Shown here: positions 24,409 to 26,529 of the stretch, in pieces
Numbering within the stretch: the first letter of the stretch is position 1
Layout: each line of letters opens with the position of its first letter
Source of the DNA: Thermoprotei archaeon
GTDB taxonomy: Archaea > Thermoproteota > Thermoprotei > Gearchaeales > WAQG01
Assembly: GCA_049976445.1 (NCBI GenBank)
Contig: JBMFIF010000002.1
Location: forward strand, 5,115 to 69,114
DNA: 64,000 bases
Direction: 5' to 3'
The notes under the pieces: generated by a model
The model's input: only the letters and a program-made list of their open reading frames with translations
Told to the model about the DNA's origin: nothing
The model's database searches: none
Made by a program: the position numbers and the translations under genes

Positions 24409-25308
24409 ATTACATCAATAAGAGAAATTCCTAGAGAAGAATACCTATTACCAGGCACAGCAGCATGCCCAGGATGTGGTTTTACAATAGGATTAAGAAT
24501 GGCACTAAAAGCATTAGGACCAAAAGTAATAATGGTTGTACCAGCAGGATGCACCTCAATAATACAAAGCCCATATCCATACGTTTCTATAGGAGTACCA
24601 CTATTAAACATCGCATTTGCTGCAGCAGCATCAACAGCATCAGGAATAGCAGCAGCACTAGAATACAAAGGGGATAAGGAAACCACAGTCCTAGTATGGG
24701 CAGGAGATGGAGGAACAGCAGACATAGGAATACAAGCGCTCAGCGGAGCAGCAGAAAGGGGCGATAATTTCATTTACATATGCTATGACAATGAAGCATA
24801 CATGAATACTGGAATACAAAGAAGCGGAGCAACACCATTCGGAGCATGGACAACAACCACATGGACTGGCAAAAAAGAATTCAAAAAAGACATCCCCATG
24901 ATTATGGCAGCACATAAAATACCTTACATTGCAACAGCATCAATAGCATACCCAATAGACTTCTACGATAAACTAAAGAAAGCCAAAACATACAAAGGAT
25001 TAAAATACTTACACATACACGCACCATGTCCACCAGGCTGGAAAATCCCAACAGACAAAACAGTAGAAATAGCAAAACTCGCAGTAGAAACAGGATTATG
25101 GGTACTCTACGAAATAGAAAACGGAGAGTTTAGACTCACAGGCCCTAGCAAAATACTCATAGACAAAAACAGAAGAAAATCAATAGAACAATACATCAAA
25201 ATACAAGGAAGATTCTCACACATGACAGACGAAGATATAAAAACACTCCAAGAATGGATAGATAAACAATGGGAACAATATACAGAAATGCTTAAACAAC
25301 GAAAATAA
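24409..25308 (+). CDS. porB: pyruvate/2-oxoacid:ferredoxin oxidoreductase beta subunit (TPP-binding); start placed at ATT 24409
   Basis: TPP motif GDGGTADIG. The conserved N-terminal [11 protein letters not shown] (Fe-S ligand cysteines) lies between the porA TAA (24406-24408) and the first ATG (24499). That stretch has no ATG, GTG or TTG. GGAGGTG at 24396-24402 is followed after 6 nt by ATT. Confidence 0.8.
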   Translation: [299 protein letters not shown]

Positions 25309-25379
25309 ACAAATAACTGACAAAACAATACAGAAACATCACAATGAGTTATCTAAATATATAGCCCATGCATTAACGA

Positions 25380-25571
25380 GCTGGCTTCATCTGCTGGTTC
25401 AGGGAGTGTCACGATTTCCTCGTCACATAGAGAATGCAACACTGAAAAACATGCTAAACGTTGGAACCTTGAACCGTAAGGTGTGCTTTCAACAAACGGA
25501 TTGGAGAACGACCAATGAAGCCTAACCGAAGAAAAAGCTGGAAGCTCTCAACTTAAGTCGAGGAGAGGACG
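25380..25571 (+). pseudogene. 3' remnant of an IS200/IS605-family tnpB gene plus right-end sequence
   Basis: Translates, with an internal stop, to ...RHIENATLKNMLNVGTLNRKVCFQQ...NEA*PKKKLEALNLSRGED. This resembles the TnpB C-terminus (DRD.NAA.NIL..GT.G...NACG...EA..L.RGEDV). It forms a GC-rich patch in AT-rich intergenic DNA. Confidence 0.5.
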
Positions 25572-25952
25572 TTACATACTAAGACTTAATAATGTTAATT
25601 CATCAATTGTTTGATTAAACAATGCCTCATAAAGACCAGCGACCCTCTCTAAAATAATAATACCTTTAGTTAACACGTTATACCTAAACTTTACTTGCAA
25701 CTCATCTATTGGAACAACATCAAAAGGAATTCTTAAAAACTCTTCTAATCTAGCAGAAAGTAATGCATAATATTTAAACTCCTTATTCATAGAATAAATG
25801 GCAATATCAACATCCCTAAAACTTTTTAACTCCACAAAACTACCAAATATGATTGCTAGAAGCACATCTTTTTCACTCTCAAAAAACTCTCTAATGGAAT
25901 TCATGACAGTTTTCTTATCAATCCTATAATACTTAAATCTTGAAAGCATCAC
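25572..25952 (-). CDS. minimal nucleotidyltransferase (MNT) antitoxin-type protein
   Basis: GSFVELKSFRDVDIAIY is the GS-x(n)-DxD NTase motif. Overlaps the upstream HEPN gene by 20 nt. Confidence 0.8.
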   Translation of the reverse strand: MMLSRFKYYRIDKKTVMNSIREFFESEKDVLLAIIFGSFVELKSFRDVDIAIYSMNKEFKYYALLSARLEEFLRIPFDVVPIDELQVKFRYNVLTKGIIILERVAGLYEALFNQTIDELTLLSLSM

Positions 25953-26355
25953 TAATCCTCCTAATAAAATTCATAACATTAACAAAATCACTTCTAATAT
26001 TCTCATATATCTTCTCGTCAATAATAATCCAATATCTATGAACAAGTAAATTTCGCAACTTAAACATGCTCACAAAATCCTTATACTCTTCATCAATCAA
26101 AAGACCCTTATCTCTTAAAATATTTAAGGCATGAATTGAAGATTCAGGTTCAACATTATAAAATCTCCTAACAATGTGAAGAGCTAAAGCACTCAAAGCT
26201 TCAGCAATCACAATGATATGATATCTAACTGCATACCTCTCAGTAAGACTTATTTCTTCAAACGACTTACTAACATAATCACTAATAATATTTATAGATT
26301 CCATAATATCTTTAATAAGTTTCTTAATAAAATCTCTATTAACATCCACTCTCAA
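25933..26355 (-). CDS. HEPN (DUF86) toxin-type protein
   Basis: RNLLVHRYW is the R-x4-H HEPN motif. About 140 aa. Paired with the MNT gene. Confidence 0.8.
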   Translation of the reverse strand: MRVDVNRDFIKKLIKDIMESINIISDYVSKSFEEISLTERYAVRYHIIVIAEALSALALHIVRRFYNVEPESSIHALNILRDKGLLIDEEYKDFVSMFKLRNLLVHRYWIIIDEKIYENIRSDFVNVMNFIRRISDAFKI

Positions 26356-26433
26356 TTCACTCCAAGAAAACTAAGAAACCACAATTTAAAAAGATATTCA
26401 ACAAACTCTCATAAAAACCAAAATAAATAAAAA

Positions 26434-26529
26434 TTAACGGGAATAAGCAAGACGCTCATACAAAAAAGAAGAAAACCAACAGAGCAATACATAAAGATAC
26501 AAGGCGTGTTCTCAAGCATGACTAATGAT
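26434..26529 (+). pseudogene. ghost fragment homologous to the 3' end of porB
   Basis: Translates to [32 protein letters not shown], compared with real porB [33 protein letters not shown] (25145-25243). Hand alignment gives roughly 70 percent nucleotide identity over about 96 nt with one codon gap. Confidence 0.55.

Follow-up and report, generated by a model that had tools for sequence, protein, structure and literature searches.

Among integrative elements, those with tRNA-gene-targeting integrases and the casposons at the end of the EF-2 gene rebuild the 3' end of their target. Homology-facilitated illegitimate recombination was reported for bacteria that undergo natural transformation (de Vries & Wackernagel 2002; Prudhomme et al. 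2002; Meier & Wackernagel 2003, as cited in PMC5361080; also PMC3240628), and the displacement of C-terminal ends, which leaves orphan modules behind, is known from Rhs, CdiA, and type VI secretion effector loci (Jackson et al. 2009; Poole et al. 2011, PMC3150448; Kirchberger et al. 2017, PMC5361080). Here, we analyzed a stretch of 64,000 nucleotides (the window) from the genome of a Thermoprotei archaeon, which represents chromosomal, AT-rich archaeal DNA with a G+C content of about 35%. The subject is porB (24409-25308, forward strand), which encodes a PorB/VorB-type beta subunit of a 2-oxoacid:ferredoxin oxidoreductase, together with a decayed copy of part of its 3' region, here called the ghost, which lies further downstream at 26431-26525. 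The window porB is a chimera of the alleles of two clades, and the ghost is, as judged from its sequence, a remnant of the resident porB allele, i.e., the displaced original gene end.

The porB event appears to resemble both of the bacterial processes. As in homology-facilitated illegitimate recombination, one end would be anchored by homology and the other joined without homology, whereby foreign DNA was gained and resident DNA was lost. Unlike in those studies, the event is deduced here from natural genomes of an uncultivated archaeon of the Thermoproteota and not from experiments, and the anchor sequences differ by roughly 10-20%. No report of homology-facilitated illegitimate recombination in archaea was found in our literature search. 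As in the C-terminal displacement loci, a new 3' gene end and small downstream genes arrived while the old 3' end persists downstream as a fragment. However, those loci encode polymorphic toxins that are subject to diversifying selection and whose displaced tips often stay usable, whereas here a core metabolic subunit received a near-equivalent allele (proportion of nonsynonymous differences, pN, 0.068 to the old type), the stub of 92 nt is dead, and the passenger is a toxin-antitoxin pair instead of an immunity gene. The event functions like processes known from bacteria and does not represent a new kind of system. The novelty lies in a well-resolved example from nature, in a core metabolic gene of an archaeon, in which the displaced allele can still be read.

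The Ghost Repeat and the Chimeric porB Gene

The original prediction had described a collinear copy of the porB C-terminal region with roughly 70% nucleotide identity by hand alignment, and this copy is real. A local DNA alignment of 26446-26523 with 25147-25227 gave a score of 72, compared to 25.8 +/- 3.7 (maximum 39) for 500 composition-preserving random sequences from a first-order Markov model of the query, which excludes chance similarity as the origin of the ghost. The same pair was found as the top family of a repeat finder (80 nt ungapped, 74% identity) and by within-window blastn (E = 1.4e-12), and the codon alignment of the ghost with the window's own porB yielded 72% identity, the longest exact run common to both being 9 nt. 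The predicted frame of the ghost peptide was confirmed, and the boundaries were adjusted. The homologous segment of the working gene, porB codons 243-275, lies at 25135-25233 on the forward strand, about 10 nt to the left of the predicted 25145-25243, and only 25 codons instead of the last 60 or so are left between 25233 and the stop codon (25306-25308). The ghost corresponds to the same codons on the same strand, and its homology spans 26431/26434 to 26525; it does not reach 26529, since from 26526 onward the sequence belongs to a repeat element with a further copy at 35.2 kb. A stop codon precedes the ghost reading frame, one in-frame codon is deleted compared to functional alleles, and otherwise conserved residues are altered (QGRF to QGVF). 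Beyond the repeat element, no significant similarity to the remaining porB was detected (P = 0.29-0.6).

Among 172 PorB homologs, the ghost peptide is nearest to this lineage's own PorB (22-23 of 32 residues, next best 17), and thus it is not a distant paralog. Informative relatives were obtained by protein search plus the listing of the 90%-identity PorB cluster, whose 16 members were the source of the closest relatives, while broad PorB scans of genome and metagenome contigs led, among the matches listed, only to relatives with at most 64% identity and to no empty site. Two of the cluster members (P0271 and P0276) combine the window-type N-terminal 120 residues with a ghost-type C-terminus, LTGISK(T/M)L...FS(S/N)MTDD, one of which reads LTGISKMLLDKKRRKPVEQYIKVQGRFSSMTDD, and it is their loci that are most closely related to the window. 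At the DNA level, the ghost is 85% identical to porB of L181 and 79-81% identical to that of L180, but only 72% to the window's own porB and 68% to that of L163. Furthermore, the ghost, L181, and L180 have the synonymous codons TTA, GGA, ATA, AAG, ACG, GAG, GGC, and GAT in common.

Direct repeats about 1.3 kb apart around inserted DNA could also have arisen if the 3' end of porB had been locally duplicated in tandem upon arrival of the insert, whereby the downstream copy would have decayed neutrally. However, the ghost and the working copy differ by a proportion of synonymous differences (pS) of 0.64 and a pN of 0.19, with saturated synonymous sites and a ratio of nonsynonymous to synonymous substitutions (dN/dS) of 0.15, and 9 of the 19 changed codons are purely synonymous, which would have a probability of P = 0.001 if a local copy had decayed neutrally. 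These values argue that both sequences diverged as functional genes. In addition, the ghost is 13 percentage points nearer to the working gene of another lineage and has the synonymous codons of that gene, so that a tandem duplication is effectively refuted and hardly credible. It might also be that the ghost is what remained of a mostly deleted second, paralogous oxidoreductase operon, for example vor beside por. Tandem por and vor operons occur in some archaea, and the working gene scores slightly higher with the VorB-type NCBIfam model than with the PorB model. Nevertheless, the ghost identities to L181 and L180 given above refer to orthologous porB ends with the same upstream neighbours, the loci of the relatives contain no second beta-subunit gene downstream of porB, and no paralog with 75-90% identity was found in a search of 5.8 billion proteins. 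No other PorB-family sequence matched the ghost better than the porB alleles of its own lineage, and we regard a paralogous operon as very improbable.

The arrangement of the window is also present in L081, L082, and L179, three independent assemblies in which the ghost sequence is identical, and therefore it is not an assembly chimera. The other relatives fall into two clades. L181 shows a DNA identity to the window of 92-94% across the por operon and L180 of 84-87% across the flanking genes, whereas L163 reaches only 73-84%. The L163-L167 lineage has a PorB that is 94% identical to that of the window and the same upstream gene order, comprising Hjc, IleRS, NERD, and Thg1 and leading onward to porGDAB. 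As diagnostic sites we considered positions at which L163 equals L182, L180 equals L181, and the two pairs differ; the L181/L180 state is referred to as resident type and the L182/L163 state as donor type. From 22475 to 24768, 158 sites are of resident type and 20 of donor type, whereas from 24774 to the porB stop the ratio is 5 to 44 (maximum chi-square 117), as in a homologous-exchange junction. This places the recombination breakpoint at 24768-24774 on the forward strand, at about codon 121 of porB and 365 nt upstream of the duplicated segment (25135). Identity to the window drops at the breakpoint from 93.6% to 81.5% for L181 and rises from 83.1% to 94.2% for L182, while L163 is 91.8% identical to the tract 24774-25308. 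Likewise, for codons 1-120 the window has a pS of 0.19 to L181 and of 0.38 to L182, compared to 0.58 and 0.17, respectively, for codons 122-290. Since diagnostic sites, identity, and pS all swap, the last 535 nt of porB (24774-25308, forward strand), i.e., the 3' 60% of the gene, derive from the L182/L163-clade lineage. Together with the ghost being nearest to L181, this bears out the claim that the gene end was replaced and that the ghost is the displaced original.

A pS change-point analysis with L163 alone had placed the start of the tract at 24157. This was superseded by the diagnostic-site mapping with the closer relatives, and the signal at 24157 is partly codon bias, because third-position A reaches 0.62. 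Outgroup amino-acid distance ratios did not single out PorB.

The divergence of the ghost from L181 lies above the genome background (pN 0.093 compared to 0.004-0.016; pS 0.36 compared to about 0.2), and the differences are distributed across all codon positions, which is the pattern expected of neutral decay after displacement. The stub provides an internal clock, on which roughly 0.1 extra substitutions per site would have accumulated since the displacement. Taken as a whole, the locus is a clean trace that recombination between lineages has left in nature in an uncultivated archaeon from a hot spring, in which the gene of an essential enzyme was partly overwritten by the allele of a relative. 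As this porB is a chimera of two clades, phylogenies based on single por genes need caution.

The DNA Between porB and the Ghost

About 1.1 kb at 25311-26430 is present in the window but absent from all relatives, and neither the insert with its HEPN-MNT genes nor the ghost was found in any of L163-L167 and L180-L183, which represent both clades. The homology of the L163 clade to the window ends 2 nt beyond the porB stop, where a PNGaseA gene follows in L163. L163 and L182 carry PNGaseA 3' of porB, L180 and L181 carry an ECF-like membrane protein gene at this place, and the window has the toxin-antitoxin pair together with CobT. Because this zone differs in every lineage examined, it seems to have been rearranged repeatedly.

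Six bases past the porB stop lies a 30-nt internal fragment of a PNGaseA gene (25315-25344, forward strand; peptide QNNTETSQ), which is 93% identical to L182:6337-6366 and 90% identical to L163:12382-12411, both at homologous positions of the gene. As PNGaseA is the gene that follows porB in these two genomes, the fragment ties the present porB end to chromosomal DNA of the donor clade. It is followed by a spacer of 227 nt (25345-25571) without detectable homolog in Pfam, NCBIfam, phmmer, and L182 tnpB comparisons. A 3' remnant of a tnpB gene had been predicted at 25340-25570 and could not be substantiated. The 71-codon frame of this stretch has no Pfam or NCBIfam match, and phmmer against 1.84 billion representatives returned only two matches, both spurious repeat proteins. 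By tblastn, there is no similarity to the TnpB of L182 or within 1.9 Mb of fetched loci, there is no Rfam match, and the RNA fold is ordinary (z = +0.47). The portion of 25315-25344 inside the claimed stretch, considered as a tnpB relic, is part of the PNGaseA fragment instead.

The HEPN-MNT pair that had been noted between the two copies was confirmed by profile searches. An intact gene for an MntA-type nucleotidyltransferase (MNT) antitoxin (25572-25952, reverse strand; PF18765 Polbeta 56.6 bits, PF01909 25.4 bits) overlaps by 20 nt with an intact gene for a HepT-type RNase (HEPN) toxin (25933-26355, reverse strand; PF01934 65.6 bits). The HEPN protein has the R-x4-H motif in the form RNLLVH, and the MNT protein has a GS..DVD motif. 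On this basis, the pair fits a HepT-MntA toxin-antitoxin module with predicted activity. With its overlapping genes, HepT-like and Polbeta/NTP_transf_2 domains, R-x4-H, and GS...DxD, it looks like other type VII systems of this kind, and nothing unusual was seen. The upstream region of the cassette (26355-26401, reverse strand) is 81% identical over 48 nt to L174:5951-5997, which is located directly upstream of the L174 HepT gene. HepT homologs with 54-68% identity are paired with MNT in unrelated contexts; no por gene was located near HepT-MntA in the contexts inspected, where the best HepT match was 68%, and the donor arrangement was not found among them.

No integrase or transposase was identified in the insert or among 30 open reading frames (ORFs) scanned in the window (57.4-63.8 kb not covered), and the gene tables of L081 and L179 list no integrase either. 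A tRNA search and an Rfam search at the gathering threshold yielded nothing in the window.

Mode of Exchange and Competing Histories

The history that we consider probable, although with clear reservations, consists of a single homologous crossover within porB, combined with a single illegitimate joint at codon 242/243 of the resident gene. A resident porB that once resembled the L181/L180 type would have recombined with DNA of the L182/L163 clade. The left junction would be an ordinary homologous crossover within porB at ~24770, and the right junction would be an illegitimate joint at 26431-26434, where the resident gene resumes. The incoming DNA would have supplied porB codons about 122-299 and sequence downstream of the donor porB, of which the 30-nt PNGaseA fragment would have survived, whereby the spacer and HepT-MntA now separate this fragment from the joint. 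Of the resident gene, codons about 122-242 would have been lost, while codons 243-275 would have been left outside any gene as a decaying stub. This would have resulted in a functional chimeric porB, a toxin-antitoxin module new to the site, and the ghost of 92 nt. In agreement with this, resident codons about 122-242 are absent and ~1.1 kb of non-homologous DNA has been gained. We infer that a single event brought in all of these parts and that it took place without a dedicated recombinase.

Several observations weigh against such a simple course. No genome of donor type was found in which porB, a PNGaseA remnant, the spacer, and MNT-HEPN are contiguous, and the cassette or the deletions could represent separate steps. 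The ghost lacks porB codons 276-299 and is not followed by the ECF-like neighbour gene of L180 and L181, which calls for at least one further rearrangement at its right side. At the illegitimate joint, homology of the ghost to L181 sets in at 26431 and the upstream side is the flank of the toxin-antitoxin cassette; the two sides share only AAA, which is uninformative in A-rich DNA. Finally, the diagnostic sites do not give a perfectly clean picture, as the imported tract includes 5 sites of resident type and 20 sites of donor type lie outside of it.

The patchwork of junctions in this region, made up of PNGaseA fragment, spacer, cassette, ghost, and a hairpin element, would also suit a history of several steps, in which an insertion or larger rearrangement first split the resident porB at codon 242/243 and a later recombination with L182-like DNA rebuilt the gene. 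The variability of the zone 3' of porB among lineages and a second ghost-flanked insert at 37.8-40.6 kb are in line with this idea. On the other hand, it requires that the beta subunit of a central metabolic enzyme was truncated for some time, the right end of the second event must coincide with the first insertion, which is less parsimonious than a single event, and no intermediate genome is present among the 16 cluster members. We therefore rate a multi-step history as unlikely, though worth keeping in mind.

The original prediction had interpreted the locus as the footprint of an integrating element that carried its own copy of the target gene's 3' end and displaced the original. The displacement of a native end by a foreign end holds, but not the mechanism. 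In a site-specific scenario, a circular element would have used a copy of the porB 3' end as attachment site, and its integrase and most of the element would have been lost later. As in elements that rebuild the 3' end of their target, an insert of 1.2 kb with toxin-antitoxin genes is bracketed by diverged direct repeats of a gene 3' end, a working copy is adjacent, the ghost is the native end, and the present end is foreign. In contrast to such elements, the foreign sequence starts not inside the repeated segment but 365 nt upstream of it, and there is no identical attachment core, as the copies are only 72% identical with no exact run above 9 nt. An integrase was not detected in the ORFs scanned. 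Moreover, the DNA 3' of the stop includes the PNGaseA fragment of the donor clade, which points to a chromosomal donor, and the HepT-MntA homologs occur in unrelated contexts with no por gene nearby. Thus, a site-specific integrative element appears quite improbable.

If the exchange took place by one homologous and one illegitimate junction, accessory genes may lodge beside core genes without any integrase. One-sided recombination of this kind, so far characterised in transformable bacteria, then probably also shapes archaeal chromosomes.

Hairpin Elements, a Second Insert, and Neighbouring Genes

At the right edge of the ghost, at the point where the porB homology stops, an element of 147 nt (26526-26672, forward strand), which may have truncated the ghost, is located directly 3' of the sequence ATGAT, which is part of the ghost. 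It contains two CC-UUCA-GG hairpins (fold z = -3.3) and matches the Rfam family HgcC over the full model with 25.4 bits, whereas the gathering score is 50 (E = 5e-4 when 401 nt were searched and 0.087 across the whole window). Over 59 nt, its right arm shares 80% identity with L182:12665-12719 at the 3' terminus of an OrfB_IS605 (tnpB) gene. Hence, IS200/IS605 material lies on the opposite side of the ghost from where it had been predicted. A shorter copy of 44 nt, AAAAGAAGGACAAACTTCGCCCTTCAGGGTGGGGAAGAGGTCAG, which consists of the first 32 nt and the last 12 nt of the long element, is located at 35194-35237 on the reverse strand directly after TTGAT. It is cleanly absent in L081 and L179, strains with 99.7-99.9% identity to the window, and therefore was gained recently, apparently through insertion of a minimal element derived from IS200/IS605. 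This fits insertion without target duplication and 3' of a short motif, TTGAT for the 44-nt copy and ATGAT for the long copy, the former of which is the target of the ISDra2 family. The HgcC family and the fused-end PATE elements have been linked to the UUCA tetraloop of the IS200/IS605 right end (Gomes-Filho et al. 2015, PMC4615843). The hairpin pair, the sub-threshold but full-length HgcC match, the tnpB-3'-like right arm, and the clean presence/absence of the short copy are in line with these RNAs, so that we classify 26526-26672 as a putative non-autonomous, PATE-like element derived from IS200/IS605 with an HgcC-like RNA. In contrast to the described RNAs, the short copy comprises only 44 nt. 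No transposase gene for it was found among the scanned window ORFs (again without 57.4-63.8 kb). The segment 26526-26672 is the most variable spot among the near-identical strains, accounting for 3 of 16 differences to L081 and 2 of 20 to L179. The short contig L082 terminates inside of it, as expected for a multi-copy repeat.

In L182, the 530-nt spacer 3' of porB (L182:4404-4932) holds a G+C-rich hairpin element of a different type (CGCCCCGAAAGGGGCAGGGGTCAG), and a PfkB gene at L182:10785-12750 is interrupted by a frameshifted OrfB_IS605 (tnpB) gene, which is independent IS200/IS605 activity around the same locus. In L180, an inverted remnant of 70 nt (L180:13939-14008) is 84% identical to 29228-29296 of the window, the 5' end of the binding-protein gene of the cobalamin cluster, and adjoins an inverted aldo-keto reductase gene. 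It seems that the cobalamin cluster was inverted in this genome and then mostly deleted.

The same logic as for porB had been suggested for 37.8/40.5 kb. Diverged repeat copies of about 106 nt (37797-37902 and 40482-40590, 77-82% identical) indeed bracket an insert of 2.6 kb there, but they represent an internal piece of a truncated permease gene and not a gene end. The two copies match codons about 176-212 of a sugar ABC permease, which comprises 494 aa in the relative L177, and both start within about 10 nt of one position of the intact gene. The left copy is more diverged from L177 (80% compared to 93%). Of the window permease, whose closest named relatives are from Infirmifilum species, the ORF retains only the last 297 codons, and the amylase and binding-protein genes upstream of it are absent. 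In the insert (37903-40481), a pair of genes encodes proteins of 83 aa and 197 aa that match no family; it is accompanied by part of an ABC ATPase gene (39207-39527) and by a Peptidase_A4 gene (39560-40354, reverse strand). Just left of the right-hand copy, 40420-40460 resembles the tail of the hairpin element by eye only (GGGCGAGAAGATCA). Two ghost-flanked inserts bordering hairpin sequence within 64 kb, one of them by eye, and one apparently recent insertion might suggest that breaks at or near IS200/IS605/TnpB-type elements, repaired with DNA of co-resident lineages, drive one-sided allele replacement and the lodging of toxin-antitoxin genes near core genes in Thermofilaceae-like archaea, an idea that we regard as speculative and improbable.

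Regarding the surrounding genes, the por operon starts with porG (22400-22957), followed by porD, porA (23221-24408), and porB, all on the forward strand. Downstream of the hairpin element, CobT (26984-28093, reverse strand) is followed by a cobalamin salvage cluster. Public sources name the beta subunit PorB, while the NCBIfam ranking favours the VorB type (PRK11864 with 471.6 bits, PorB model PRK11865 with 429.3 bits). As the VorB-type score is slightly above, the substrate name of the oxidoreductase is uncertain, and we retained the name porB. The porB start codon in the window and in L179 is ATT, abutting the porA stop codon (TAA-ATT, 24406-24411), whereas L163, L180, and L181 have ATG at this position. 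The earliest ATG of porB, at 24499, lies beyond the CPGCG motif within the conserved region, and gene callers therefore give a truncated product of 269 aa. Translation of porB probably initiates at ATT or through coupling to porA. The forward strand from ~20300 to 26700 shows a strong excess of A over T irrespective of gene direction, with A-rich third codon positions in forward-strand genes (porB 0.63 A, 0.11 T) and T-rich ones in reverse-strand genes (HEPN 0.57 T). This skew reverses near 26.7 kb, at the border of the region of the ghost and the hairpin element.

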